Position numbers and translations under genes: made by a program
Shown: piece by piece, positions 2,671 to 20,602 of the stretch
How the letters are laid out: every line of letters begins with the position of its first letter
How positions within the stretch are numbered: the first letter of the stretch is position 1
NCBI GenBank assembly: GCA_963806155.1
Contig: CAWDXC010000018.1
Location: 42,514 to 106,513 of the forward strand
Direction: 5' to 3'
From: an uncultured Actinomycetes bacterium
Lineage (GTDB): Bacteria > Actinomycetota > Thermoleophilia > RBG-16-64-13
Length of the DNA stretch: 64,000 nt
Notes under the pieces: generated by a model
The model's database searches: none
What the model saw: the letters and a program-made list of their open reading frames with translations, nothing else
What the model was told of the DNA's origin: nothing

Positions 2671-3519
2671 CTAACCGGGAAGGATCGACCCGCACGAGCC
2701 GCAGAAGCGCGCGCTCTGAGGATTGTCGGCGCCGCAGTCCGGGCACGTCCGCGATGTAGGAGAAGGGGCGGTCACGCCCATACGACCCTCGCCCGGTGGA
2801 TTGGCATCTTTGACAGGCAGTACGACTGTCTCCTGGACCGGCATGGGGCTCCTCGGCGGCGGGGTCGCCGCCGGTGGAGTCGCGGGTGTCGCGACCACCG
2901 GCGTCGGGGCCGCCGGCGACGGACTCATCGGGATCGGCGCGGCTGGAGGGGGCGTGGCCGCGGCAGACGGGACGGGGGCAGTCGCAACTGCTTCCGCGCG
3001 CGGTGGCGCGGGCTCCGGAGGAGCGTAGGCTGGTGCGACCGGGCTCATCTGCGCCGGTGCCATGGCCGGTGTCTGCACCGGCGCCGCGGAGGCCGGCGCC
3101 CGCGCCGGGAGAGCCGTCCCGCGCAGCAGGGTGAGCACCAACCCAAAGAGGGCCGCCACCGTAGGAATGAGCACGATCACCGAGACCCAGCTATGGAACA
3201 CGGCCGCGGTCGCTACCTGGAACGCGACCACGAGAGCCAGGAGCCAAAGCACCGGCCCTTCGCGGAACATCTTCCAGGAAGCGGCAAAGGATATGAGGCT
3301 CGCGAGGAACGCGAAAGAGTATTCGATCGCCGATCCGGTGGTAGCCGAGGCGAAGCTGCTGCCGAACCCTCCAAGGCTGTCGGTGACGGCGGTGATGAGA
3401 CCGAGAGCCCCAAGCACCCCCAAGAGCAGGAAGGCCATCCCCGCAACGGCGACGAGATTCCCCAAGAGGGTGATGTAGAGATAGAGAGGCCGCTCGGAAC
3501 CTGTGGACGAGTCGTTCAT
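2671..3519 (-). CDS. membrane protein with Pro/Ala-rich linker and C-terminal zinc-ribbon
   Basis: N-terminal ~4 hydrophobic helices, ~90-aa P/A/T-rich low-complexity linker, C-terminal CPDCGAxN...CGSCG zinc-ribbon; ATG preceded by GAGGG. Confidence 0.55.
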   Translation of the reverse strand: MNDSSTGSERPLYLYITLLGNLVAVAGMAFLLLGVLGALGLITAVTDSLGGFGSSFASATTGSAIEYSFAFLASLISFAASWKMFREGPVLWLLALVVAFQVATAAVFHSWVSVIVLIPTVAALFGLVLTLLRGTALPARAPASAAPVQTPAMAPAQMSPVAPAYAPPEPAPPRAEAVATAPVPSAAATPPPAAPIPMSPSPAAPTPVVATPATPPAATPPPRSPMPVQETVVLPVKDANPPGEGRMGVTAPSPTSRTCPDCGADNPQSARFCGSCGSILPG

Positions 3520-3614: not shown

Positions 3615-6512
3615 TTGCAAAAGTGGCGAGGGGAGATAAGAATAGAGCCAACCAATAAAAGGGGGGGTGGGCTCGTGTTCGGTCGGCTCTCTTTCGAAGG
3701 TCAGGACGGTGTCCAGGAGCGTGAGCTCGACCAGGCCGTCATCGGCTTGGGGCGCGCTCCCGAGAACGACGTGTACCTTGATCATGCGACCGTCTCCCGG
3801 TTCCACGCTCGTATCGTCTCCGACGCGGTCGGAAGCAGCATCATCGACCTGGGCAGCGGCAACGGTACGCGGGTCGACGGGGCAGAGCTCGACGTCAAGA
3901 TCGAGCAGCGGCTGGTCGACGGCTCTCTCATCCAGATAGGGCCTTTTTCCATTCGCTACCACCTGGGGGCGGTGGCGCCGACCGTCCTCGCCGCGGCGCC
4001 CGGCGCTCTGCCGGGCGTTCTACCTGAGCCCGCCGGGAAGCTGGGCCAGACCATAGTGATGGCCCCTCCCGCACCGCCGCGGCTGGTCGTCACCACTCCC
4101 CAAGGAGTCGCTGAGTTTCCTTTGACGTCCAGCTCGATGACTCTGGGGCGTGATCCGGCGAACGACATCACCGTGGATTCGGACGCCGTCTCCCGCCGCC
4201 ACGCACGCCTCGACAGGCGGGACTCGGGCTGGGATATCACCGATCTGGGCAGCACCAACGGACTTCGCTTCCAAGGCAAGCCTGTACAGAACGCACCATT
4301 GGCGGACGGCGAGGTGGTCTACATCGGGCGATCGGTCGCCTTGGAGTTCCGTGAGGCAGAGACCGCGCGCGCTGCGGGCGGCGCCCCGGCGGGCGCGGCT
4401 GCGCAGCGCGCTGAGACGTTCGACCTGCCCTCCAAAGGCGCCATGGTCCTGGGCCGCAGCGAGAACGCCGACGTCACCATCTTCCATCCCCAGGTGTCGC
4501 GGGCTCACGCCCAGATCGTGCGGCGCGGCTCTGAGCTCTATCTGGAAGACCTGGGCAGCGGCGGCGGGACCTACCTCAACGGCCAGATAATCAAGGAGCA
4601 CCTACTGGGCGAGGGGGACGTGGTCCGCATCGGCTCCAGCCGCATGGTGCTGGAGCAGGGACGGCTGCGGGTGGTCGATGAGGAGGGCAACCTGCGGATC
4701 GATGCTTTCCATCTCAGCCGGGTGGTCGGTAAAGGACTGCGCATCCTGCAGGATGTTTCGCTGTCGATCTACCCGCAGGAGTTCGTCGCCATCGTGGGAG
4801 CCAGCGGTTCGGGCAAGTCTACGCTCATGAATGCGCTCTGCGGCTTCCGTCCGGCGAACATGGGGACGGTGCTGCTCAACGGGACCGACCTCTATCGCAA
4901 TTTCAGCGCATACCGGAACGATCTGGGCTACGTGCCGCAGGACGACATCATCCACAGGGAACTGTCGGTCGTGCGGGCTCTCGACTACGCCGCCCAATTG
5001 CGGATGCCGGGGGACACCTCTGTCCAGGAGCGCCGGCAACGGGTGCAGGAGGTGCTCGAGGACCTCGATCTGCGCGTGACCGCGGACCGAGCGGTACGCC
5101 AACTGAGCGGCGGTCAGCGCAAGCGGGTGTCCATGGGGGTGGAGTTGCTCACCAAGCCCAGCCTGTTCTTCTTGGACGAGGCGACGTCCGGTCTCGATCC
5201 AGGCACCGAGTCGCAGATGATGAAGCTACTCCGCCGGTTGGCCGACCAGGGCCGCACCGTCGCCCTCGTCACGCACGCCACGAAGAACGTCATGACCTGT
5301 GACAAGGTCGTATTCATGGCTCGGGGAGGCCACCTGGCCTACTACGGACCGCCCGAGGACGCGCTCCGCTACTTCGGCGTGGACGATTTCGACGAGATCT
5401 ACACCCGGCTCGAGCAGGGCGACTCTAGAGAGTGGGAAGGCCGCTTCCGCGCCTCGCCGGGGTATCGCGAGAACGTCGAGAAGCGTCTCGCGGAGATGGA
5501 CCCGGTCGCCGCCATGCAGGGCGCCGGCGCCGCATACGGTGTGGCCGGTGCGTTCGCGGGCGCTCCCGCCGCGCCGGGAGTCCGCGCACCCGGCCAGCTC
5601 CCGCAGCGTGCCTCCGATCCGCCGCGGCGGGTGTCGAACTTCAAGCAGTTCCTGGTCCTCTCCAAGCGATATCTCGACACCATGTGGAGCGACAAGAAGA
5701 CGATGGCTTTGCTGTTCGGCATCGCCCCTGTCCTGGGAGCGCTCGACTTCATCATCTGGAAGCGCGACGTCTTCGATCTCGAGACCGGCAGCGCGACTCA
5801 GGCCGTCACCATGCTCTTCATGACCTCCATCATCACCATCCTGGTGGGGACCATCACCTCGGTGCGGGAGATCGTCAAGGAAGACGCGGTCTACCGACGG
5901 GAGCGCATGGTGGGGCTGCGGGTCATGCCTTACGTGGGTTCGAAGGTGGCTATAGGATTCATCTTCGCGGTGTGGAGCGCTCTAGTGCTCTTCTTGTTCC
6001 TCATAGCCGCGGTCGATTTCTCCCACCTGAGCTTTGCCGCGACCATGCAGCTTCTGGTGCCTCTCGTCCTGGGCACGTTCGCCGGGGTCATGTGGGGACT
6101 CCTGGTGTCGGCGGTGGCGCCCAGCGAGGATCGGGCCATGCTTCTCGTGATCCTGGTGCTGGTGCCGCAGTTCGTGTTCTCGGGAGGGATGATCCCGGTC
6201 TCGGACCTGGGAGTAGCCGGGAAGGTCATGGGATGGGTGACATCCACCCGCTGGGAGTTGGGCGCTCTGGTCACCTCGGCCCAGGTCGAGAGCGGTCCGG
6301 GGGAGGCCGCCGACCTCTCCGACGTCTATCTGCCCGGGATCGAGAGCCTGAAGACCCCGGGAGAGAAGCAGGCCTTGATCAGCACTCTCCACGACCAGTA
6401 TGGCGACATCTTCCACGTGGATCTGGCGCTCTATTGGGGAATGTCCATAGTCCTGGCCGCGATCCTGCTCGCCATCATCATCGCGCTGCAGAAGCGCAAG
6501 GACACCTTGTGA
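3615..6512 (+). CDS. ABC transporter with three N-terminal FHA domains, fused ATPase + ABC-2 permease (Rv1747-like)
   Basis: Three FHA cores (LGRAPENDV..SRFHARI; LGRDPANDI..SRRHARL; LGRSENADV..SRAHAQI each followed by DLGSxNGT); Walker A GASGSGKST, signature LSGGQRKRVSMGVELL, Walker B LFFLDEATSGLD, H-loop TVALVTHA; C-terminal ~6 TM ABC-2 domain. Likely true start is GTG at 3675 behind a GGGGGGGTGG Shine-Dalgarno. Confidence 0.85.
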   Translation: MQKWRGEIRIEPTNKRGGGLVFGRLSFEGQDGVQERELDQAVIGLGRAPENDVYLDHATVSRFHARIVSDAVGSSIIDLGSGNGTRVDGAELDVKIEQRLVDGSLIQIGPFSIRYHLGAVAPTVLAAAPGALPGVLPEPAGKLGQTIVMAPPAPPRLVVTTPQGVAEFPLTSSSMTLGRDPANDITVDSDAVSRRHARLDRRDSGWDITDLGSTNGLRFQGKPVQNAPLADGEVVYIGRSVALEFREAETARAAGGAPAGAAAQRAETFDLPSKGAMVLGRSENADVTIFHPQVSRAHAQIVRRGSELYLEDLGSGGGTYLNGQIIKEHLLGEGDVVRIGSSRMVLEQGRLRVVDEEGNLRIDAFHLSRVVGKGLRILQDVSLSIYPQEFVAIVGASGSGKSTLMNALCGFRPANMGTVLLNGTDLYRNFSAYRNDLGYVPQDDIIHRELSVVRALDYAAQLRMPGDTSVQERRQRVQEVLEDLDLRVTADRAVRQLSGGQRKRVSMGVELLTKPSLFFLDEATSGLDPGTESQMMKLLRRLADQGRTVALVTHATKNVMTCDKVVFMARGGHLAYYGPPEDALRYFGVDDFDEIYTRLEQGDSREWEGRFRASPGYRENVEKRLAEMDPVAAMQGAGAAYGVAGAFAGAPAAPGVRAPGQLPQRASDPPRRVSNFKQFLVLSKRYLDTMWSDKKTMALLFGIAPVLGALDFIIWKRDVFDLETGSATQAVTMLFMTSIITILVGTITSVREIVKEDAVYRRERMVGLRVMPYVGSKVAIGFIFAVWSALVLFLFLIAAVDFSHLSFAATMQLLVPLVLGTFAGVMWGLLVSAVAPSEDRAMLLVILVLVPQFVFSGGMIPVSDLGVAGKVMGWVTSTRWELGALVTSAQVESGPGEAADLSDVYLPGIESLKTPGEKQALISTLHDQYGDIFHVDLALYWGMSIVLAAILLAIIIALQKRKDTL

Positions 6513-6542
6513 CGGACGATCTCTGATGGACGAGGTCCTGCG

Positions 6543-8906
6543 ATGGACGATCTCGTAGGCAGGACTCTGGGCAGGTACCAGGTGACCGTCCTGGTGGGGC
6601 GGGGCGGGATGGCAACCGTGTACCGGGGAGCCGATCCGGTCCTCGACAGGACGGTGGCCATCAAGGTCATGCACAGCCACCTGGCTGCGGATCCCACCTT
6701 TGTCAGTCGTTTCCGCCACGAAGCGCAGGCGGTGGCCGCTCTCAGGCACCCCAACATCGTGAAGGTGTTCGACTTCGGCAACGAGGGCGAGTCGTACTAC
6801 ATGGTCATGGAGTTCATCGACGGCCCCACCTTGGCCGCCCTCATGCAGGCCGGAGCGGCCGCCAGCAGCACCAAAGCTCCAGGCCCTTCCGGAGAGCCGC
6901 ATAGTGGTCTCTCCACCGGAGAGATCCTGCGCCTGTTCCCGCCTCTCTGCTCGGCCATCGACTACGCCACCGCCCATGGCATGGTGCATCGCGATATCAA
7001 GCCGGCGAACATCCTCCTGACCGGCGAGGGAGAGCCCGTCCTCGCCGACTACGGCATCGCCAAGATCATGGGGGCCACCTCCTACACCGTCTCCGGGGTG
7101 GTGATGGGCTCGGCCCACTACATGTCGCCCGAGCAGGTACAGGGCTTCCCGGTGGACCACCGCACCGACATCTACTCCCTGGGGGTGGTGCTTTTTGAGG
7201 CCTTGGCCGGCCGGGTCCCCTACGACGCCGACACCACCGCGTCCATCCTCGCCCAGCATCTTTCAGCTCCTGTCCCTCCCGCCCGCTCCATCAACCCACA
7301 GTTGCCAGGAGAGATCCAAGCCGTGCTGGAACGGGCCCTGGCCAAAGAGCCGGAGAGGCGCTACCAGCGAGGCGGCGACCTGGCTGCCGCTCTGCAGACC
7401 GCCCTCGCACCCCTCCCGGCCACGATCTACGAGCCTATCCCCGGGCCCGGCGCGGCCCTCGCTCAAACGGTGGTCGAAGGTCCCGGTGTGCCGTACGCAG
7501 GGAGTGGGCGGCCGGCCGTCCCCACGGCGGCGACGGCCCCGCCCTTGACAGAAGCCCCTCCTCTGACGCAAGTCCCGCTCGTGACACCAGCTCCTCAGGC
7601 TGCACCCGGCTCCCCAGGGTCACCGGGCTTTTCTCCTACGAGGGTGGAGCGAGTGGCGCCCGAGGCACCGGCGCCGGTCACCTGGGAGCAGCCCGGCTTC
7701 GCGATCCCCTCGCGCGGGACGTCGCGTCGGTGGTGGCTGATCGCCGCCGCGGCCGTGGTGGTTATCGCCATCATCGCGGTGGTCGCCGTGCTGGCCACAC
7801 GTTCGGGCGAGCAGTCGACCGAATCCACCGTCACGACGACGGATGGCACCGTGGCCTCGGATTCCACCACCGGTCCCGAGGATCGCTCGACGACCACGAC
7901 GCTGGCGGTGGAAGTGGCCCAGTTGATCGAGGACGGGGACGCTCTTGTGGAGAGCGGGAAGCTCGATGAAGGCATCGCCATGTATGAGGAGGCGCTGCGT
8001 GAAAGCCCGGACAGCGACCTGGGCCGTACCCGGCTGGGCATCGCCTATTACCTCCATGGAGGCTACTCCACCGAGATGACGGCCCAACAGCTCGAGCTGG
8101 CCACCCAGAAGAACCCGGAAAGCGCCGAAGCCTGGGCCTTCTTGGGCCTGGCCTGGCTGAGCGCTGCCTACAGTCGTAAGTCGGGCGATCTCGCGTCGGC
8201 GGAAGAAGCCTGCCGGACGGCGGTCGAACTGGACCCGGAGAGCGGCCTGGCTCACGCGTCTCTCGGCCGGGTGCTGGCCGCTTCGGACCGGCAGGAGGAA
8301 GCCCTGACGGAGATGCAGACCGCTCTGGACCTTGACCCGCAGGATCCCTGGGTGCAGGAGTCCGCCGGCTGGATCAACGCCGTGCACGGAGACTGGGAGA
8401 CCGCCGTCCCCTACTACGAGACGGCCGTCACCTACAGACCGAACTGGGCCAGCTTCCTGAGTCTGCTGGGTGAATCTCTGTGGCAGACCGGGCACTACGA
8501 CGAGGCCCTCGAGTACTACGAGACCGAGCTGGATCTGGGGCAGGGGTACGAAGCCTCTGCCTACCAGGACATCGGGTTGACGCTATGGCACAAGGGGGAC
8601 TCCCCCGGAGCGATCGAGAGCCTGAAGGAGGCTCTGGCCCTCGACGAGAACGACGACTACACCCATTGGGCCCTCGGCGCTATCTGGGACGAGATGGAGG
8701 ACTACGAGGCTGCCTTGCCTCACCTGCAGCGTGCCGCGGCCCTGGTGCCGGACAACGCCGGTTATCAGGAATGGTTGGGGGACTGCCTCTACTACCTGGG
8801 GCGCTACGAAGAGGCCAGGGTGGCCATCGACAAGGCCTTGGAGCTCGAGCCCGACCGCGAGGGAGCGCAGCGACTCTCGGGATATCTGGCGGACGAGGGC
8901 TACTGA
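6543..8906 (+). CDS. Hanks-type Ser/Thr protein kinase with single TM and extracellular TPR repeats
   Basis: Kinase motifs GRGGMATVYRG, AIKV, HRDIKPANILL, DYGIAK, SPEQ; Pro-rich linker; TM WWLIAAAAVVVIAIIAVVAVLA; C-terminal ~350 aa of TPR-like repeats (AYYLHGGY, AWAFLGLAW, LGDCLYYLGRYEEA). Confidence 0.85.
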   Translation: MDDLVGRTLGRYQVTVLVGRGGMATVYRGADPVLDRTVAIKVMHSHLAADPTFVSRFRHEAQAVAALRHPNIVKVFDFGNEGESYYMVMEFIDGPTLAALMQAGAAASSTKAPGPSGEPHSGLSTGEILRLFPPLCSAIDYATAHGMVHRDIKPANILLTGEGEPVLADYGIAKIMGATSYTVSGVVMGSAHYMSPEQVQGFPVDHRTDIYSLGVVLFEALAGRVPYDADTTASILAQHLSAPVPPARSINPQLPGEIQAVLERALAKEPERRYQRGGDLAAALQTALAPLPATIYEPIPGPGAALAQTVVEGPGVPYAGSGRPAVPTAATAPPLTEAPPLTQVPLVTPAPQAAPGSPGSPGFSPTRVERVAPEAPAPVTWEQPGFAIPSRGTSRRWWLIAAAAVVVIAIIAVVAVLATRSGEQSTESTVTTTDGTVASDSTTGPEDRSTTTTLAVEVAQLIEDGDALVESGKLDEGIAMYEEALRESPDSDLGRTRLGIAYYLHGGYSTEMTAQQLELATQKNPESAEAWAFLGLAWLSAAYSRKSGDLASAEEACRTAVELDPESGLAHASLGRVLAASDRQEEALTEMQTALDLDPQDPWVQESAGWINAVHGDWETAVPYYETAVTYRPNWASFLSLLGESLWQTGHYDEALEYYETELDLGQGYEASAYQDIGLTLWHKGDSPGAIESLKEALALDENDDYTHWALGAIWDEMEDYEAALPHLQRAAALVPDNAGYQEWLGDCLYYLGRYEEARVAIDKALELEPDREGAQRLSGYLADEGY

Positions 8907-10717
8907 CCCGCGGGGGGTCGCCCGGCCGGGGGCTGACCGGCCAGGGGTTGGCCGGCGGCTGTCGCCATCCGGTCGACGAAGGACTGGTAGGTCTCCATCA
9001 TGGCGTCGAACGGCTTGTCGAACTCGATCGTCGTGAAGTGCCCGGCGGGCCGGCAACGGACCAGGTCGAGGGGGAGCAGGCCATCCCAGGAGTAAGCCAG
9101 CTGAGGGAAGGCCCCTCGTCCCACCACTCGGATCGCCGTCACTCCCTGAGCTCCACAGGCGGTGGCAAAATCGAGGAAGCGACGGCTCAAGCCCTCTCCG
9201 GGCCTGCCTACCGCGACGCTCAGGGACTGTAGAGAGCGAGAGGGGAGCAGGCCGAGGTAGTCGCGGGGCACTTCCATCAGGTCGTCCACCGGACGTACGA
9301 TCACCACCCGGCCCTGACAGTCGTTTACGAGGGTATTGAACATGCCCGGACTCAGGCTGGGACGGCCGGGGGCCCTCTCGTCCAGTATCACCACGAACGG
9401 GTCGTCGTAGTCCGAGAGGACTTGAAGGCCGGTGGGCACACCACTCGAGCTTTCTAGGGCCTTGTACCGGTCGAAGGTGTCGTGCAGCTGGCGGAGCGGC
9501 CAGGCGCCGCGCGGCAGTACCTCGGACAGCCTGCGAAGCCGACCGGCAAGAAGGCCGGCGTACTCGAGCGGGTCGGTATCTCCATGTGCGCTTCTCTCAA
9601 CGAAGTGGATGCGGGAAGAGAGACACCCGTTCTGATCCCAGAAGACAGAATCGAGACCGGCCAGCAGAGCGACGGCGGCGACGAGCCCGCCCTCCCACGA
9701 ATAGTGAGCGCCCTCGCGACCGAGCTCGAAGACCTCCCGGCCGATGGCCGTGAAGCTGACTTTGTGCCCATGGGGATGGAAACGGACGTGGGACCGGCCC
9801 GAAGGGCCGCGCTCCCGCGGGATCTGACCGGCGATGCGGGCGATCGTGTCGTCTCCGGCGGCCGCGATCACGAGGTCCGACCGGCCGAGAAGCCGGCTCT
9901 GGAGGGCCGCATCGTCGTAGTCCCAGACCAAGACGGCGACAGTGGAGGCGAGTTCCTCGTCCGCTTCTTCCAGCGCCTGGAGGACGATCGGGCTGAATAT
10001 GGGCTCGCGCCGCGAGTTACGCACCAGTACCACCGGCGGCGCTCCACCACAGAGGGTGGTCGAGAGGGCCAAGAGGACGATGATAAGGGCGGTCCCCGGC
10101 ACGTTCCCAGCGCCGTACCCGGTGACGAACTCCGGTGCCTCCGGTGCACCGAACAGCGATATCCCGGAATACAGGGGCAGTCGGCCGGCCAACCGGGAGA
10201 TCCCCGCCGCGCGAGAGGGGAAGAAACGGAGGCGACCTGGCAACCCGGGCAACGGCTGCCAGCGAGCCTTCGTCGCTTTCCTGGGGTCGAGGGCGAACGC
10301 GCGGGTCATCTGCTCCAGATCCCATATCTCCGGGGCCGCCATCACCGAGCCGATCATGGCCGGGCTGTAGCCCGTGTAGCCGGGGATCGTTTCGAGCTCT
10401 CGACGGGCGGGAGCCTTCGGATCGGCGAGTCCTCGGGCGACCACTTTCATGGCCACGTTCAGGCGGTCCCAGAACTCCGGGCCGCGGGGAGCCCGGCCGC
10501 GAGCGGCGGCCAGTCCGTCGAGCAAGACCGTCCAGTCGTTCTCGGTGAGACGTGGCCACCGGGTGGTGACGGCTCCCGGCGTCTCCGCTTCGCGCTCGCG
10601 TCCGCACTCGCGGCCGGCAGCGAAACTCGACTCCACCCAGGTTCGTCGTCCGCCGACGATCGCGCGACGCATGGCCTTCGGGAGCCAGAACCCGTCGATC
10701 ACACCTGGGCTGCGCAT
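8900..10717 (-). CDS. LuxC-family acyl-CoA reductase (start uncertain)
   Basis: C-terminal 450 aa of ORF 8900..10987 resemble LuxC acyl-CoA reductase (…GNVPGTALIIV…, …WDQNGCLSSRIHFVE…); the first ~90 aa of the ORF are Arg-rich GC-artefact; candidate starts M91 (10717) or M106 (10672); 3' end overlaps the convergent kinase gene by 7 nt. Confidence 0.55.
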   Translation of the reverse strand: MRSPGVIDGFWLPKAMRRAIVGGRRTWVESSFAAGRECGREREAETPGAVTTRWPRLTENDWTVLLDGLAAARGRAPRGPEFWDRLNVAMKVVARGLADPKAPARRELETIPGYTGYSPAMIGSVMAAPEIWDLEQMTRAFALDPRKATKARWQPLPGLPGRLRFFPSRAAGISRLAGRLPLYSGISLFGAPEAPEFVTGYGAGNVPGTALIIVLLALSTTLCGGAPPVVLVRNSRREPIFSPIVLQALEEADEELASTVAVLVWDYDDAALQSRLLGRSDLVIAAAGDDTIARIAGQIPRERGPSGRSHVRFHPHGHKVSFTAIGREVFELGREGAHYSWEGGLVAAVALLAGLDSVFWDQNGCLSSRIHFVERSAHGDTDPLEYAGLLAGRLRRLSEVLPRGAWPLRQLHDTFDRYKALESSSGVPTGLQVLSDYDDPFVVILDERAPGRPSLSPGMFNTLVNDCQGRVVIVRPVDDLMEVPRDYLGLLPSRSLQSLSVAVGRPGEGLSRRFLDFATACGAQGVTAIRVVGRGAFPQLAYSWDGLLPLDLVRCRPAGHFTTIEFDKPFDAMMETYQSFVDRMATAAGQPLAGQPPAGRPPAGQ

Positions 10718-12087
10718 CCCGCCTCCCCCAACAGGTCCACTCGCTGAATGGAGCCTTTCTCCAGGTAGGCACCGGTGTCGCCGCAGGGGCAGAGCGTTTC
10801 CCCCCGCCCATCGACGAGGGTGACCCGGTCCGCCGTGCGGAAGAAGCCTGGGAACAGGTCGCCGCTCCCGAAAGGATCGAAGAAGGCCAGGAGCCCGGTC
10901 GCTCTGTCTCCCGCTCGGGTCTCGCCGTCGTCGTCCAGAGCCACCGCGTGGACCCAGGGCGGGACGTGATAGTTGCCGGCGGAGCACTGCATCGCCGCCC
11001 AGTTGGCCTCGGCCATGCCATAGACATCTCGTAGGGGCAATGCGCCTCCGTCCGCCGGCCGGAAGGCGCGCTCCAGGTCCTGCCTGATCTCGTCGGGCGA
11101 GAGACCATAGGCCTCCTTCATGCCTCCGCCGGTGCCGAGCAGGCTACCCGGAGCCAGAGAGATCGCACGGTTGGCGCGTAACAGAGCCAGGGCGACTCCG
11201 TGCAGCTGGGTGAGACTGCCGAACAGGAGCACCTTCTCGCTGCGCGCCGCGGCCCGGTCAAGCCGCTTGAGGGCCACCTTGATGGCGCGGGGGTCCACGT
11301 AGTGGGCCTGGAGGGTGTTGATGGCGGGGTGCCAGACCCGCTTTTCCACCCAGCCGCGCGGGCCGGAACGGTAGGCCCGGCCGGCGCGGATGCGGACCTG
11401 GTCGGGGTGGGCGGGGAACGGTATGGCGAAATGCACTCGGTCGGAGGTGAGCCCTACCCGCCGGACACTGAACCGGGCCATGCGGGCCATGGCGATGCGG
11501 CTCCGCTTGGGCATCATGAAGATCGCACGGTGGTCGGCCTTCATGCCGAGGTACCGCTGGAAAGACAGGTAGAAGCTCTCCACGTTGAGGTCGGTGCTCC
11601 TGGCGTCTCGGGCGATGATGGTGGCTCTGCCCGAAGTGCCGCTCGACGTCAGCAGTTCCAGCGCGTAGTCGGAGAAGAGGTACTCGATGGCCTGCAGCAG
11701 CGCCTCGAGAGACCGGTAGCTCGACCCGAGCCGGCGGAGACGGTCGGCGGGAAGATCGACCGAGAGCTGGTCTATGAGCCATTCCCCAAAGTCGCGGGCT
11801 TTATCCTGGGGGAACGGCGTCCCCAACAGGTCGATGTAGGACTTGAAGGTCTGGGACGTGGGCCGCAGCAGCCGGGACAGGTCGTCCACCGCAGCCCGGG
11901 GCCCCACTCCCCGGGCGGCCACTGCGTTGCGATAGGCCGTGTTACGCGCATAGTGCCAGGAGTGCGTGGCCAAGATGCCACGCAACACCTTCTTCTCGCG
12001 CTCGGCCTCGGGAATGCTCCAGAAGCCGGCCAGCTCGTCAGTCGTTTGGGCGCCGGGTTCCACAGTGTCGTGCGCTCCTCCTGTCAC
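10699..12087 (-). CDS. LuxE-family acyl-protein synthetase (adenylate-forming)
   Basis: 462 aa; AMP-binding P-loop LLTSSGTSGRATI, overall LuxE-like architecture, C-terminal CPCGDTGAYL motif; positioned between hotdog thioesterase and LuxC homologue on the same strand. Confidence 0.7.
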   Translation of the reverse strand: MTGGAHDTVEPGAQTTDELAGFWSIPEAEREKKVLRGILATHSWHYARNTAYRNAVAARGVGPRAAVDDLSRLLRPTSQTFKSYIDLLGTPFPQDKARDFGEWLIDQLSVDLPADRLRRLGSSYRSLEALLQAIEYLFSDYALELLTSSGTSGRATIIARDARSTDLNVESFYLSFQRYLGMKADHRAIFMMPKRSRIAMARMARFSVRRVGLTSDRVHFAIPFPAHPDQVRIRAGRAYRSGPRGWVEKRVWHPAINTLQAHYVDPRAIKVALKRLDRAAARSEKVLLFGSLTQLHGVALALLRANRAISLAPGSLLGTGGGMKEAYGLSPDEIRQDLERAFRPADGGALPLRDVYGMAEANWAAMQCSAGNYHVPPWVHAVALDDDGETRAGDRATGLLAFFDPFGSGDLFPGFFRTADRVTLVDGRGETLCPCGDTGAYLEKGSIQRVDLLGEAGCAAQV

Positions 12088-12111: not shown

Positions 12112-12579
12112 TTACTCCGCGCTCGCCATACGCCGGCCGCGCTTAGGAACGGGCGGAAGCTCGCGCCCTTCCAAGGCGAGGATGGCGCTTCGGTACTCCG
12201 CGCGGAGCGGGACTCGCCGGCTCGTCACGTAGTCGTACGAGACCACGAGGGTCTCCCCGTCGGCCACCACTCTGTCCAGCGCTCGGCTGTGCGCGTCGTA
12301 CTCCATGAGGAAACGGTCCTCTCCGAGGGCCGACACCCGCGCTCCCAGCGAGAGGGTGTCCGGGTAGTTCACCGGCGCCCGGTAGCGGCAGCTGTTCGTC
12401 CCGATGATGAAGCCGTAGTCCCACAGGTCCAACCGGGGCGGGATCACCCCGAGACGCTCCAGATAGGAGATACGCACGATCTCGAAATACTCGAAGTAGA
12501 TGGTGTTGTTGACGTGCCCCAGGGCGTCCATGTCCGCCCAGCGCACCTCTACCTCGACGACCACAGGGTAGTGGTTCAA
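12112..12579 (-). CDS. acyl-CoA thioesterase, hotdog fold (YbgC/4HBT-like)
   Basis: 155 aa; VRWADMDALGHVNNTIYFEYFE catalytic-region motif of 4HBT thioesterases; TTG start with AAGGAGAGG Shine-Dalgarno. Confidence 0.75.
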   Translation of the reverse strand: MNHYPVVVEVEVRWADMDALGHVNNTIYFEYFEIVRISYLERLGVIPPRLDLWDYGFIIGTNSCRYRAPVNYPDTLSLGARVSALGEDRFLMEYDAHSRALDRVVADGETLVVSYDYVTSRRVPLRAEYRSAILALEGRELPPVPKRGRRMASAE

Positions 12580-17508: not shown

Positions 17509-19806
17509 TGCCGAGGCCCTTCGAAGTCGGGAGCGACCTGCAGCGTCAGCAACTCCTCGAGAGGGATATGGCAACAGATCTCGTGGTCGCCGAGCTCCTC
17601 CCTAGCCGAACGCCAGGGCGGCGTCGTGGTCTGGCAGATCGGTCCCAGCCGGCGAGGGCACCGCGGATGGAAACGACAGCCCGAAGGGATCTCGCCGCTG
17701 GTGGGAGTACCGGTGTGCAGGCGCACGGCCCTCCGACGCGCCCTCGGGTCGGGCACCGGTATGGCGGAAAGGAGGGCCTCGGTATACGGGTGGTAAGGCG
17801 GCGCCAGTACCAGAGCGGCATCGCCCTGCTCCATCAGGGCACCCAGGTACATCACCGCGATCCGGTGGGAAAGATGCTGTATGGCGGCCACATCATGGGA
17901 TATGAACAAGTATGAAGTGCCCTGCTCCGCCTGCAGATCGACCAGCAGGTTCATGAGCGAGCCCTGCACCGACACGTCCAGCGATGAGATCGGTTCGTCG
18001 CATATCACCAAGTCGGGCGCTGCAGCGAAGGCGCGCGCGATGGCCACCCGCTGTTTCTCGCCCCCGCTGAGTTCCGCGGGATAGCGGTGGAAGTAGCTCG
18101 CCGGCAGCCGAACGGCCTCGAGCAACTCATAGACCCGCCGGGCAGCGTGGTCGCGGTCGAGTCTGCCCAGAGTGAGCAGGGGGCGGATGACGGCTTGGCC
18201 CACAGTCCGCCTAGGGTTGAGCGAGGCGTCCGGATTCTGGAAGACCATTTGTAGGCGCCGCAGCACGTCCCGTTTGCGGTCGCCTGTCTCTGGCGCGAGA
18301 GGATCACCTTCCATGAGGACACGACCTCTGGAGGGCGCGGTGAGCCCGCTGACCACCCGGGCCAGGCTGGTCTTCCCGCTCCCGCTCTCTCCTACCAGGC
18401 CTAGAGTCTTGGCCTGGTCGACAAAGGTGGTGACTCCATCCACCGCCCTGGTCTTGGATCTTCCGGCGCCCTGATACAGCTTGCTCACGTCGCTGACGGT
18501 GAGGAAGTGGTCTTCTCCTGGTGCGGCGGCGATCGGGACGGGGGTGCCAGCAGCCTGCCCCGGCCCGCCGGCAGGCTGCTGTATCGGTGGTGCGCACTGA
18601 GGTAGGCTCACAGCGCCGCGGCGTCCTTCGTCCGAGAGAAGAGACTCCCATCTCCAGCACCGCGTCCGATGTCCCTCGGAGGCCGCCTCGAAAGGTGGCC
18701 ATTCCGTGCTGCATCGCTCGAAGGCCACTGGGCAGCGGGGAGCAAAGACGCACCCAGGGGGCAGGTCGTCAGGTTGGGGTAGCGAGCCGGGGATCGTCGC
18801 CAGGCGCGTCTCGAGACCGGCAGCCGAGCAACTGGTGACTCCGAGAGCTGTGGCCCCGGGGCCACCGGCCCCGGGGCCGCCCACGCCGTCGCGCTGTCCG
18901 TCGCTCCAGCCGACGAAACGGGGGACGCAGTTGAGCAGGTTGATCGTGTAGGGATGAAGGGGCCGCTCGAACAGATCGATCACGGCGCCTTCCTCGACCA
19001 TCTCCCCCGCATACATGACCGCGACCCGGTCGCACACTCGCGCCACGACCCCCAGATTATGAGTGATGTAAAGAATGGCCGTGCTGTACTCTTCCTTGAG
19101 CTCCTCGAGCAGCATCGAGCACCAAGGCCTGTGTGGTGACGTCGAGGGCGGTGGTGGGCTCATCGAGGATCAGAAGTTCGGGGTTTGTGACCAGGGCCAT
19201 CGCTATGGCCGCCCGCTGCAGCATCCCCCCTGAGAGTTGGTGTGGGTAGCGGTCGGCTACGGACGCGGGGTCGGGCATGTCCACGCGTTGGAGCATGGTG
19301 AGGCTGGACTCCCTGGCCTGCTTTCGGGTGAGTCTGAGATGGCGTCTGCCCATCTCGTCCAGTTGCTGTCCGATGGTGAGCGAAGGATTGAGGGCCGTCT
19401 GAGGGCTCTGGCTGACCAGGCCGACCCTCGAGCCCCAGACTTGTCGGATGCCCCGGCCGGCAAGGGCAAGGAGGTCCGTGTCGCCTAGGTGCACGGAGCC
19501 GGTGATCACTCGGCCGTTGCCCGGCAGATAACCGATAGCTCCCAGGGCGAGGGTGGTCTTGCCGGAGCCGGACTCACCGACCAGACCCAGCGTTTTCCTG
19601 GCACCCACGATCAGGTCAACGTTCCGGACGGCCGGCAAGATCCCTCCCTCTGTCTGGTAGACCACGGAGAGGTCGTCGATCTGAAGGGCAGCCAGTGCTC
19701 CCGGCGCCTGCGGCATGTCGGCCTGGGCCGATCTTGTCATCGTGGGATCCATGTGCCTCGTCTCCGCCTTACCGGCCTCGTCCGGCCCCCGGTGGGCTGA
19801 ACACAT
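17505..19806 (-). CDS. fused double-ATPase ABC protein (DppD-DppF-like) interrupted by a +1 frameshift near 19140
   Basis: NBD1 Walker A GESGSGKTT, signature LSGGMLQRAAIAMAL, Walker B LILDEPTTALD in ORF 19057..19806; the sequence continues in another frame (ORF 17505..19163: LLEELKEEYSTAILYITHNLGVV, then NBD2 GESGSGKTSL, LSGGEKQRVAIARAF, LVICDEPISSLD, oligopeptide C-terminal domain); a single extra base between …VLD and LLEEL…. Confidence 0.7.
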
Positions 19807-20602
19807 GACGCAGGCCGTCGGCCATGAGGCTGGTCCCGATCACCAGAAGGGAGATGGCAGACGCGGGGAACAGGAGCATCCACGGGGCGGCGTCGAAGAA
19901 GGTCCGAGCTTCGTTCACCTGCCGCCCCCAGTCGGGAGAGGGAGGCTGGACTCCAAGGCCCAAGAATCCCAGGGAAGCGACCAGGAAGATGGAGTAGGCG
20001 AAGCGAACGGAGGCCTCTACCAGCAGGGGAGGTACGGCATTGGGCAGCATCTCGCGAAAGAGGATGTGACGCCGGCTCTCTCCGCCCAGTCGGGCTGCTT
20101 CGACGAACTCGCGGGTACGCAGATCGAGCACCATGCTGCGGGCGATGCGGGCGAACATCGGTACGTACAGGACTGTGATGACGAGCACGAGGTTGAGGTT
20201 CGAGGGTCCGGCCGTGGCCATGAGCACCAAGGCCAGAAGGAGCGCGGGAAAGGCGAGCAGGACGTCCAGGATCCGCATGATGGCTTCGTCGTAGAGACGT
20301 CCGACATAGCCCGCCAGCAGTCCCAACGAGGTGCCGATGATGGCGGCCAGTAGCGTGCCTGCCCCGCCGAGCAAGAAGACCGCCCGCGCCCCCACCAGCA
20401 CACGGCTGAAGACGTCGCGCCCGAAGTTGTCGGTCCCCATCGGATGGTCCGGGGAGGGACCCTGGAGCCGCTCGGCGGCGTTCTGGGCGGTGTAGTCGTA
20501 GGGGGCGATCAGGGGGCCGAACAGAGCCATGAGCAGGAACAGGACGAAGATCACCGTTCCGGCCAAGGCGACCGGCTGGCGGCGGAGCCGGCGCCAGTAC
20601 AT
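19769..20602 (-). CDS. ABC peptide transporter permease (DppC/OppC-like)
   Basis: GTDNFGRDVFSRV N-terminal motif and EAA-loop region typical of DppC; probable start MYWRRLRRQ inside the longer ORF 19769..20962. Confidence 0.8.
   Translation of the reverse strand: MYWRRLRRQPVALAGTVIFVLFLLMALFGPLIAPYDYTAQNAAERLQGPSPDHPMGTDNFGRDVFSRVLVGARAVFLLGGAGTLLAAIIGTSLGLLAGYVGRLYDEAIMRILDVLLAFPALLLALVLMATAGPSNLNLVLVITVLYVPMFARIARSMVLDLRTREFVEAARLGGESRRHILFREMLPNAVPPLLVEASVRFAYSIFLVASLGFLGLGVQPPSPDWGRQVNEARTFFDAAPWMLLFPASAISLLVIGTSLMADGLRHVFSPPGAGRGR

Follow-up and report, generated by a model that had tools for sequence, protein, structure and literature searches.

The locus holds a triple-FHA transporter gene followed by a kinase gene

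We analysed a stretch of 64,000 nucleotides (referred to here as the window) from an uncultured Actinomycetes bacterium of the Thermoleophilia (assembly GCA_963806155.1, contig CAWDXC010000018.1, positions 42,514 to 106,513), and focused on two neighbouring genes, one encoding an ATP-binding cassette (ABC) transporter with three FHA domains and the other a membrane Ser/Thr kinase of the Hanks type. To our knowledge, the mycobacterial pair Rv1747/PknF is the only FHA-phosphothreonine-gated ABC exporter that has been studied, and its substrate is still unproven. Judging by its sequence, the locus described here is a member of a widespread but unstudied three-FHA branch of Rv1747-type transporters, with a receptor kinase that appears to co-evolve with them. 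The following elements define the pair:

3657-3667, plus strand: Shine-Dalgarno-like sequence AAAGGGGGG, 8 nt before the GTG at 3675, read directly in the sequence
3675-6512, plus strand: gene of the triple-FHA, putatively ABCG-type half-transporter, 945 aa (identity to database protein P0001, Pfam domains, AlphaFold2 (AF2) model)
6543-8906, plus strand: gene of the receptor-type Hanks Ser/Thr kinase, 787 aa, with ATG at 6543

The open reading frame (ORF) listed for the transporter, 3615-6512, opens with TTG, and an earlier note on this DNA had accordingly started the gene at 3615. An in-frame GTG lies at 3675, and we place the start there because it is preceded by AAAGGGGGG and because P0001, which is 100% identical to the transporter, has 945 aa, a length that fits GTG 3675 exactly. 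Residue numbers refer to this 945-aa protein unless stated otherwise; counting in the 965-aa ORF adds 20. The spacing of the two genes given in the earlier note was accurate: between the transporter stop codon (6510-6512) and the kinase ATG at 6543 there is a gap of exactly 30 nt, on the same strand, which holds GAGG as a ribosome-binding site (RBS). A promoter scan gave no sigma-70-like site upstream, and a terminator scan returned terminator-like matches only at chance level. No further FHA or kinase genes were found in the 64-kb window. It is fairly probable, in our judgement, that the two genes form a two-gene operon encoding a phospho-regulated exporter.

Three FHA domains precede the ATPase and membrane domains of the transporter

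The transporter can be divided into the following parts, in which pLDDT denotes the per-residue confidence of the AF2 model:

3684-3968, plus strand: FHA1, aa 4-98, with canonical G26-R27, S41-x-x-H44 and N63-G64
3969-4079, plus strand: disordered linker 1, aa 99-135, with pLDDT below 50 at aa 100-132; it holds Thr126
4080-4358, plus strand: FHA2, aa 136-228, with canonical G158-R159, S173-x-x-H176 and N195-G196; best match to Rv1747 FHA-1
4359-4397, plus strand: short disordered linker 2, aa 229-241, with pLDDT below 50 at aa 230-245
4398-4661, plus strand: FHA3, aa 242-329, with G260-R261 and S275-x-x-H278 kept; aligns with Rv1747 FHA-2
4692-5474, plus strand: nucleotide-binding domain (NBD), approximately aa 340-600 (Pfam ABC_tran, 8e-31, 107.9 bits)
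5502-5627, plus strand: disordered Ala/Gly/Pro-rich linker between the NBD and the transmembrane domain (TMD), aa 610-651, with zero threonine
5637-6506, plus strand: ABC-2/ABCG-type membrane domain, aa 655-944 (Pfam ABC2_membrane, hydrophobicity scan, Foldseek)

The presence of three FHA domains, an NBD and an ABC-2 permease in a single polypeptide, as first proposed from the letters alone, is agreed upon by Pfam and by an FHA hidden Markov model (HMM). The Pfam FHA profile (PF00498) matched three stretches of the ORF with 173.7 bits against a cutoff of 20.7, and all three segments pass the profile threshold. The HMM, which was built from the three segments, returned three domains with E-values of 1e-41 to 1e-45 (aa 24-118, 156-248 and 262-349 in the 965-aa numbering). 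GarA/OdhI and FhaB are the proteins that the single domains resemble most. FHA3 departs from the canonical pattern in that SGGGT replaces S-x-N-G-T, so that the Asn of the N-G motif is absent, and this position is unconserved across 111 homologues. In the AF2 model FHA3 continues into the NBD without a disordered break.

The catalytic motifs of the NBD are intact in translation, namely Walker A (GASGSGKST), the Q-loop (VPQDD), the signature (LSGGQRKR), Walker B with the catalytic Glu (LFFLDEAT) and the H-loop (VTHAT). The Ala/Gly/Pro-rich linker that follows had been expected at aa 590-650; it does exist, but it lies at aa 610-651, which corresponds to about 630-671 in the numbering used before. 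The membrane domain scored 63.8 bits with ABC2_membrane (cutoff 26.9) and consists of an elbow helix and six hydrophobic helices, with an extracellular loop between TM5 and TM6. The AF2 model of the transporter, based on 26 aligned sequences, had a mean pLDDT of 80.4 and fell below 50 only at aa 100-132, 230-245 and 610-651. When this model was compared with the PDB by Foldseek, ABCG5/G8, ABCG2, ABCG1 and the plant ABCG16/25 were matched at TM-scores (TMt) of 0.8-0.86 over about 630 columns with about 20% identity. The model thus points to an ABCG-type (type V, ABC-2) half-transporter, which should work as a homodimer. Membership in the curated White/pigment-precursor permease subfamily was considered and rejected, as TIGR00955, the best NCBIfam match, scored 201.3 bits, far under its cutoff of 736.

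With the eukaryotic ABCG half-transporters named above, the protein shares an N-terminal NBD, the six-helix type V fold and the extracellular TM5-TM6 loop. It differs from them in sequence and in its FHA module, which the eukaryotic proteins do not have. The loop deserves a separate remark. The family consensus, G-x-C-x-x-x-D-L-S-D-C-x-L-P-G, carries two cysteines and recalls the loop disulfide of ABCG2, whereas the window transporter reads G-P-G-E-A-A-D-L-S-D-V-Y-L-P-G at this place (about 6288-6330, aa 872-885) and so lacks the cysteine pair that most family members have.

The kinase carries a TPR array predicted to lie outside the cytoplasm

The second gene encodes a protein with the following parts:

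6543-7406, plus strand: kinase domain, aa 1-288 (Pkinase, 9.7e-42, 143.6 bits against a cutoff of 31.7)
7416-7733, plus strand: disordered cytoplasmic juxtamembrane region, aa 292-397, with 10 Thr
7734-7796, plus strand: single transmembrane helix, aa 398-418, with an Arg-rich flank on the cytoplasmic side
7797-7907, plus strand: putatively extracytoplasmic, Ser/Thr-rich disordered stalk, approximately aa 419-455 (hydrophobicity scan, AF2 model)
7908-8894, plus strand: putatively extracytoplasmic TPR solenoid, aa 456-784, with 20 helices in about 10 repeats and pLDDT of at least 95

Lys41 (in VAIK), H149-R150-D151, N156, D169 and G171 of the kinase domain are invariant in 30 homologues, an SPE motif is also present, and T179 and T182 of the activation loop are likewise invariant. 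The Mg-binding DFG motif reads DYG (aa 169-171, nt 7047-7055), as it does in 30/30 aligned TPR-kinase homologues. Many TPR families of Pfam match the kinase ORF (TPR_2 at 1.7e-37 among them), and the structural matches of the solenoid are generic TPR superhelices; the AF2 model, computed with 30 sequences, has a mean pLDDT of 79.6. The sole hydrophobic helix (aa 399-417) is flanked on its N-terminal side by Arg/Lys in 30/30 homologues. As one membrane helix and a positively charged N-terminal flank are both conserved, we infer that the TPR array faces outside the cytoplasm. A membrane Hanks kinase with a long extracellular TPR array is what had been suggested beforehand, and Pfam, the charge of the helix flank and the AF2 model agree on it.

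In sequence and in fold the kinase domain is nearest to PknB/PknA. We considered an assignment to the PASTA kinases (NF033483, PknB/Stk1) and rejected it: the score of 341 bits is below the cutoff of 450, the match covers the kinase domain only, and the ectodomain consists of TPRs. A comparison with the PknB-GarA and PknB-FhaA systems is nevertheless instructive. The two-Thr activation loop (T179/T182), the Thr-rich juxtamembrane segment, the closeness of the kinase domain to PknB/PknA and the resemblance of the FHA domains to GarA/OdhI and FhaB are points of likeness. On the other hand, the window kinase has no PASTA domains, and the FHA reader is here part of the effector, i.e. the transporter, rather than a soluble adaptor.

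Most members of a widespread family have three FHA domains

Homologues were searched for in a collection of 5.8 billion proteins, and FHA domains were counted in the best 121 of them. Three FHA domains were found in 117/121, the other four being truncated. In a species survey with one genome per species, from which 80 loci (labelled with L numbers below) were retained for locus-level counts, the transporter had three FHA domains in 67 loci, four in 6 and two in 6, and the ORF was split in 1. We thus conclude from both counts that three FHA domains are the standard architecture, and not a special trait of this locus.

Relatives of the transporter occur in at least 597 species genomes. They span Gaiellales/Thermoleophilia, Chloroflexota (Anaerolineae, Dehalococcoidia, Ktedonobacterales, Thermoflexus) and cyanobacteria (Acaryochloris, Thermosynechococcus, Altericista), and after clustering at 50% there are 98 clusters that match the triple-FHA module at E <=1e-30. 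Among the matches listed, the closest to the window come from metagenome-assembled genomes (MAGs) of uncultured Actinomycetes and Gaiellales, with 89% and 85% identity. A literature search found no paper on the three-FHA ABC family. The three-FHA transporters are therefore a large, widespread and uncharacterised family related to the Rv1747 system. The four-FHA transporters belong to Anaerolineae loci (L022, L024, L029, L037, L048, L066), and the two-FHA members are cyanobacterial, with some others (L040, L042, L026, L077, L079).

The pairing with a kinase is recurrent, but not obligatory

We asked whether the two genes occur together in related genomes, and found that they do. Fifty-four loci in which the sequence continues for 3.5 kb or more downstream were taken as informative (L004 was reassigned after inspection). 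A kinase gene on the same strand directly follows the transporter in 8/54 of these, and lies one gene further downstream in 11/54; it is directly upstream, in the PknF-like order, in 3/54 and elsewhere within 10 kb in 7/54. No kinase is present within 10 kb in the remaining 25/54, so that kinase genes at other places in the genome, or other phosphothreonine (pThr) partners, can serve members of the family. A same-strand kinase at most 2.5 kb downstream was observed 19 times, whereas 1.5 would be expected if kinases were as dense there as in the parts of these loci that lie beyond 3 kb, which is an approximately 13-fold enrichment (Poisson P ~3e-15). Moreover, three look-ups of TPR-kinase homologues (a Dehalococcoidia MAG, an Actinobacteria MAG and a third contig) repeated the order of the window, a triple-FHA transporter followed by a TPR kinase, with the two genes overlapping by 1 nt or standing up to 28 nt apart and with otherwise unrelated neighbours. 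The co-conservation of the two genes in related genomes thus holds, and their pairing is a genuine, repeated feature of the family without being required.

The partner kinases form a group of closer similarity than the other kinases of these loci. Their similarity to the window kinase domain reaches median E-values of 1e-76 to 1e-81, compared with 1e-40 for the other kinases of the same loci. Their C-terminal parts vary, being TPR, TIR, a PD40 propeller, a periplasmic-binding domain or none recognised, and the sensor domain of the kinase is thus modular and swapped between lineages. The kinase-TM-TPR architecture itself occurs in about 50 protein clusters, many of which share contigs with transporter homologues.

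One might argue that the adjacency is fortuitous and that the two proteins act independently. Hanks kinases are indeed numerous in Chloroflexota and Actinomycetota, and many loci have no adjacent kinase. However, neither the enrichment over the flank density nor the tight gaps (from the 1-nt overlap to 30 nt) nor the greater similarity among the partner kinases fits this idea, and FHA domains are dedicated pThr readers, so that we regard a chance arrangement as extremely improbable.

Several further features of the partner kinases were seen in the survey. In a clade of the Thermoleophilia type, the partner kinase has no membrane helix, is cytosolic and carries TIR instead of TPR (L004 13138-15093); in L004 the juxta-kinase segment has T-R-V-E twice. 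Further TIR-kinase proteins are P0203, P0204, P0212, P0220 and P0229, several of which share contigs with triple-FHA transporter homologues. In L026 (14803-17145) and L061 (14402-16990), ectodomains of the PD40 beta-propeller or Peripla_BP_6/ANF_receptor type follow a single membrane helix. In five Anaerolineae/Chloroflexota loci (L016 221-1933; L025 1769-3478; L028 3954-5654; L030 1249-2922; L052 3834-5570), a gene that precedes the FHA-ABC gene by 3-7 kb and has the same orientation encodes a protein of about 570 aa with two FHA domains and a kinase domain. P0178 (584 aa, 74% identical to the kinase) has Pfam matches to both ABC2_membrane and Pkinase, and is probably a gene-call fusion or a frameshift across the transporter-kinase junction in a relative. 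Finally, 23 Anaerolineales loci contain, between the FHA-ABC gene and the kinase, a gene for a lipoprotein of about 330 aa with a signal peptide and a Cys lipobox (e.g. L034 13203-14192). This lipoprotein gave zero Pfam or NCBIfam matches, and the window has no counterpart of it.

The transporter is related to Rv1747, but the kinase is not a specific PknF orthologue

The reference for Rv1747 was the database protein P0244, annotated as 'ABC transporter ATP-binding protein [Mycobacterium tuberculosis]' and 863 aa long. Its orthologues are named Rv1747, and the genes pknE, pknF and Rv1747 follow one another at its locus as they do in the literature (PMC3138270). The window transporter aligns with it in one collinear BLASTP alignment (33% identity, 635 columns, E 2e-93), in which window residues 248-864 correspond to Rv1747 residues 220-807, i.e. 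FHA3/FHA-2, NBD and TMD. In both proteins N-terminal FHA domains are fused to an ABC-2 half-transporter in the order NBD-then-TMD, and in both cases the transporter is in an operon with a single-pass membrane Hanks kinase, as published for PknF/Rv1747 (PMC3138270) and as suggested by the 30-nt same-strand gap in the window.

The differences are equally clear. The window protein has an extra N-terminal FHA domain, and the FHA HMM yields two domains in 120/120 Rv1747 orthologues as opposed to three here. The domains do not map one to one, as an equation of Rv1747 FHA-1/FHA-2 with FHA1/FHA2 would have it: FHA-2 is collinear with FHA3, and FHA-1 matches FHA2 best. Rv1747 has one disordered linker of about 100-150 aa, whereas the linkers of the window protein measure about 37 and 13 aa, and the phospho-acceptors T152/T210 have no aligned counterpart in it. 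Rv1747 FHA-2 retains the N-G Asn that FHA3 lacks. The kinase gene of the window lies downstream of the transporter, while pknF lies upstream of Rv1747, and the window kinase differs from PknF in its TPR ectodomain of about 330 aa. Its identity to PknE is slightly higher than to PknF (36% vs 34%), and Foldseek ranks PknB, PknA and PknE above PknF, which is why we see no specific orthology with PknF. The idea that the locus recapitulates the PknF/Rv1747 pairing is therefore sustained as regards homology to Rv1747, but orthology of the kinase with PknF has to be given up, and the gene order is inverted.

Candidate phosphosites are found in the first inter-FHA linker and in the kinase

The Ala/Gly/Pro-rich NBD-TMD linker had been put forward as a phospho-acceptor region. 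FHA domains are specific for pThr (PMC3138270), and this linker, being free of threonine in the window protein, is thus a poor candidate. It is Thr-free in 28/111 homologues as well, its length ranges from 18 to 81 residues, and it has zero conserved S/T column across the 111, so this proposal was abandoned.

Linker 1, in turn, is Thr-free in only 3/111 homologues (for linker 2 the figure is 62/111). Thr126 (nt 4050-4052) lies in the motif G-Q-T-I-V-M-A-P-P, about 10 residues before FHA2, and its column holds Thr in 72% and Ser in 9% of the 111 homologues, with the consensus G-x-T-V-V-L-P. For the PknF/Rv1747 system it has been described that the Thr which accepts the phosphate lies in the linker between the FHA domains, that the regulation is positive and that the transporter clusters in an FHA-dependent manner (PMC3138270, PMC8339232, PMC9312465), and T210 of Rv1747 is located just upstream of FHA-2 (PMC3138270). 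The position of Thr126 is analogous to that of T210, but the two cannot be aligned residue for residue. As a candidate phospho-acceptor, Thr126 may thus be rated above the NBD-TMD linker.

The juxtamembrane region of the kinase contains two islands conserved within the TPR/TIR-kinase clade, A-Q-T309-V-V-E and P-T366-R-V-E. Together with the activation-loop residues, this makes T179, T182, T309 and T366 candidate phosphosites of the kinase.

Neighbouring genes may point to the cargo

Four genes flank the pair, all of them on the opposite strand:

2671-3519, minus strand: membrane protein with a Thr/Pro-rich tail and a C-terminal zinc ribbon, about 4 membrane helices, divergent from the transporter
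8900-10717, minus strand: LuxC-like acyl-CoA reductase (Pfam LuxC, 4e-29), convergent with the kinase
10699-12087, minus strand: LuxE-like acyl-protein synthetase (Pfam LuxE, 3.6e-9), upstream of the LuxC-like gene and in the same operon
12112-12579, minus strand: 4HBT/YbgC-type thioesterase (Pfam 4HBT_2, 3.5e-21, and NCBIfam), first gene of the minus-strand set

A start scan placed the likely start of the LuxC-like gene at ATG 10717, with GGGGGAGG as RBS. NCBIfam assigned no named family to the LuxC-like, LuxE-like, zinc-ribbon or lipoprotein neighbours. A LuxE/LuxC pair within a few kb of the transporter was found in 9 loci, in four arrangements and at least 3 lineages. It is convergent with the transporter-kinase pair in the window, L001 and L044; upstream on the same strand in L004 (5147-8092); upstream and divergent in L082 (170-3363); it begins at the transporter stop codon in L022 (5985-9065), L024 (13891-17110) and L029 (13858-17131), and follows a radical-SAM gene in L025 (13814-17334). 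In the last of these, the FHA-ABC, radical-SAM, LuxE and LuxC genes are followed downstream by a gene for a PP2C phosphatase (18878-19831). About 15 Anaerolineales loci have a hybrid set divergently upstream of the FHA-ABC gene (L034 1085-9700, minus strand), with an acyl-AMP ligase (FAAL), ketosynthase (KS), acyltransferase (AT), acyl carrier protein (ACP)-condensation and adenylation-peptidyl carrier protein (A-PCP) components, i.e. a combination of FAAL, polyketide synthase (PKS) and nonribosomal peptide synthetase (NRPS).

The LuxC-like gene is possibly linked in function to the transporter-kinase pair, and the LuxE/LuxC-like set may represent a cargo-synthesis pathway. For Rv1747, export of a glycolipid (PIM) has been put forward as a hypothesis (PMC5549992). 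Given this proposal, the ABCG fold and the recurring acyl-activating neighbours, an envelope lipid or lipopeptide of acyl origin is a plausible cargo. The export of a lipid or glycolipid suggested in the earlier note gains some support from this context.

Another possibility is that the transporter is an efflux pump for drugs, toxins or secondary metabolites, tuned by the kinase under envelope stress. Pumps of the ABC-2/ABCG type include multidrug and polyketide exporters. NCBIfam partial matches of the transporter include the DrrA and PDR families, a FAAL-PKS-NRPS cluster stands beside the gene in the Anaerolineales loci just mentioned, and loss of Rv1747 induces the efflux-related iniBAC operon (PMC3908365). 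Nevertheless, the LuxE/LuxC/thioesterase set is the sole biosynthetic cluster in the window, and the transporter gene is conserved in very diverse genomes with varied neighbours; a housekeeping cargo fits this wide conservation better than a strain-specific metabolite. An efflux function is thus distinctly unlikely in our view.

The cytoplasmic tail of the zinc-ribbon protein has Q-E-T-V-V-L-P, which is like the linker motif T-V-V-L-P of the transporter family; the equivalent is A-E-T-L-V-I-P in L044, and L001 has no clear one. It is speculative whether this protein is a third pThr partner or the motif matches by chance. It does lead, however, to a different view of the FHA module, namely that it mainly recruits other phosphorylated regulators (similar to Rv2623, or else the zinc-ribbon protein itself), that the adjacent kinase only supplies the phosphate, and that the regulation is inhibitory or scaffolding. 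On one hand, pT237 of the universal stress protein (USP) Rv2623 binds FHA-1 of Rv1747 with a negative effect (PMC5549992), and an adjacent kinase is missing from nearly half of the informative loci. On the other hand, the zinc-ribbon protein is limited to the two closest relatives, with the motif lost in L001, no USP gene was seen adjoining the pair, and a conserved kinase lineage accompanies the transporter. We consider such recruitment of other regulators unlikely as the main role of the module.

A kinase-controlled exporter might be regulated through multiple FHA contacts

What is established here comprises a parts list, homology and co-conservation, and every mechanistic step is drawn by analogy with PknF/Rv1747 (PMC3138270, PMC8339232, PMC9312465) and PknB/GarA. 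In such a scenario, a ligand or an envelope cue acting on the TPR array would activate the kinase and lead to its autophosphorylation (T179/T182, juxtamembrane Thr). The FHA domains of the transporter might then dock on pThr sites of the kinase. For the phosphorylation of the transporter by the kinase that would follow, Thr126 between FHA1 and FHA2 is the most plausible site. Binding of FHA domains to pThr, be it inside one protomer or from one to the other, could alter NBD dimerisation and/or cluster the transporter, and export would be raised as a result. A transporter dimer would offer six FHA domains for these contacts, and the direct joining of FHA3 to the NBD would permit allosteric coupling.

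Several points weigh against a phospho-regulated exporter of this kind. All sequences come from uncultured organisms. No PP2C phosphatase gene was found across the 64-kb window, and there is the large share of loci (25/54) with no kinase within 10 kb. Thr126 is only 72% conserved and has no counterpart in Rv1747. Because the conserved Asn is missing family-wide, FHA3 might have little or no affinity for pThr. The juxtamembrane motifs T-R-V-E and [AP]-T-V-V, considered as a general mark of partner kinases, had to be rejected as clade-specific and not enriched across phyla: T-R-V-E is limited to the actinobacterial clade and one other locus, [AP]-T-[VIL]-x is as frequent in non-partner kinases as in partner kinases (8/24 vs 6/17), and T-R-V-E and T-V-V are not general to the partner kinases of Chloroflexota. 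As to the cargo, the LuxE/LuxC link concerns no more than 9 of about 84 loci, and the set of the window lies on the opposite strand.

The most far-reaching form of the phospho-regulated exporter would be a cassette shared across phyla, in which a sensor-swapping lineage of Hanks kinases gates a multi-FHA ABCG exporter by multivalent, pThr-dependent clustering, the cargo being an envelope lipid of acyl origin that the LuxE/LuxC-like or FAAL-PKS enzymes encoded nearby would synthesise. We put this forward as a tentative idea, conceivable but on the whole rather doubtful.

Implications for the Rv1747 family

As the locus and its family show, FHA-gated export would not be confined to mycobacteria, and the three-FHA family is often accompanied by a related kinase with an exchangeable sensor. 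Natural variants with two, three or four FHA domains, with short or long linkers and with different sensors may serve as tests of FHA valency in the control of ABC transporters, and the recurring LuxE/LuxC-like and PKS/NRPS neighbours are concrete candidates for the cargo pathway. The main value of the locus is thus a comparative handle on FHA valency, sensor exchange and the cargo of the family; if the cassette reading is true, the kind of substrate that the Rv1747 family transports would become approachable for the first time.

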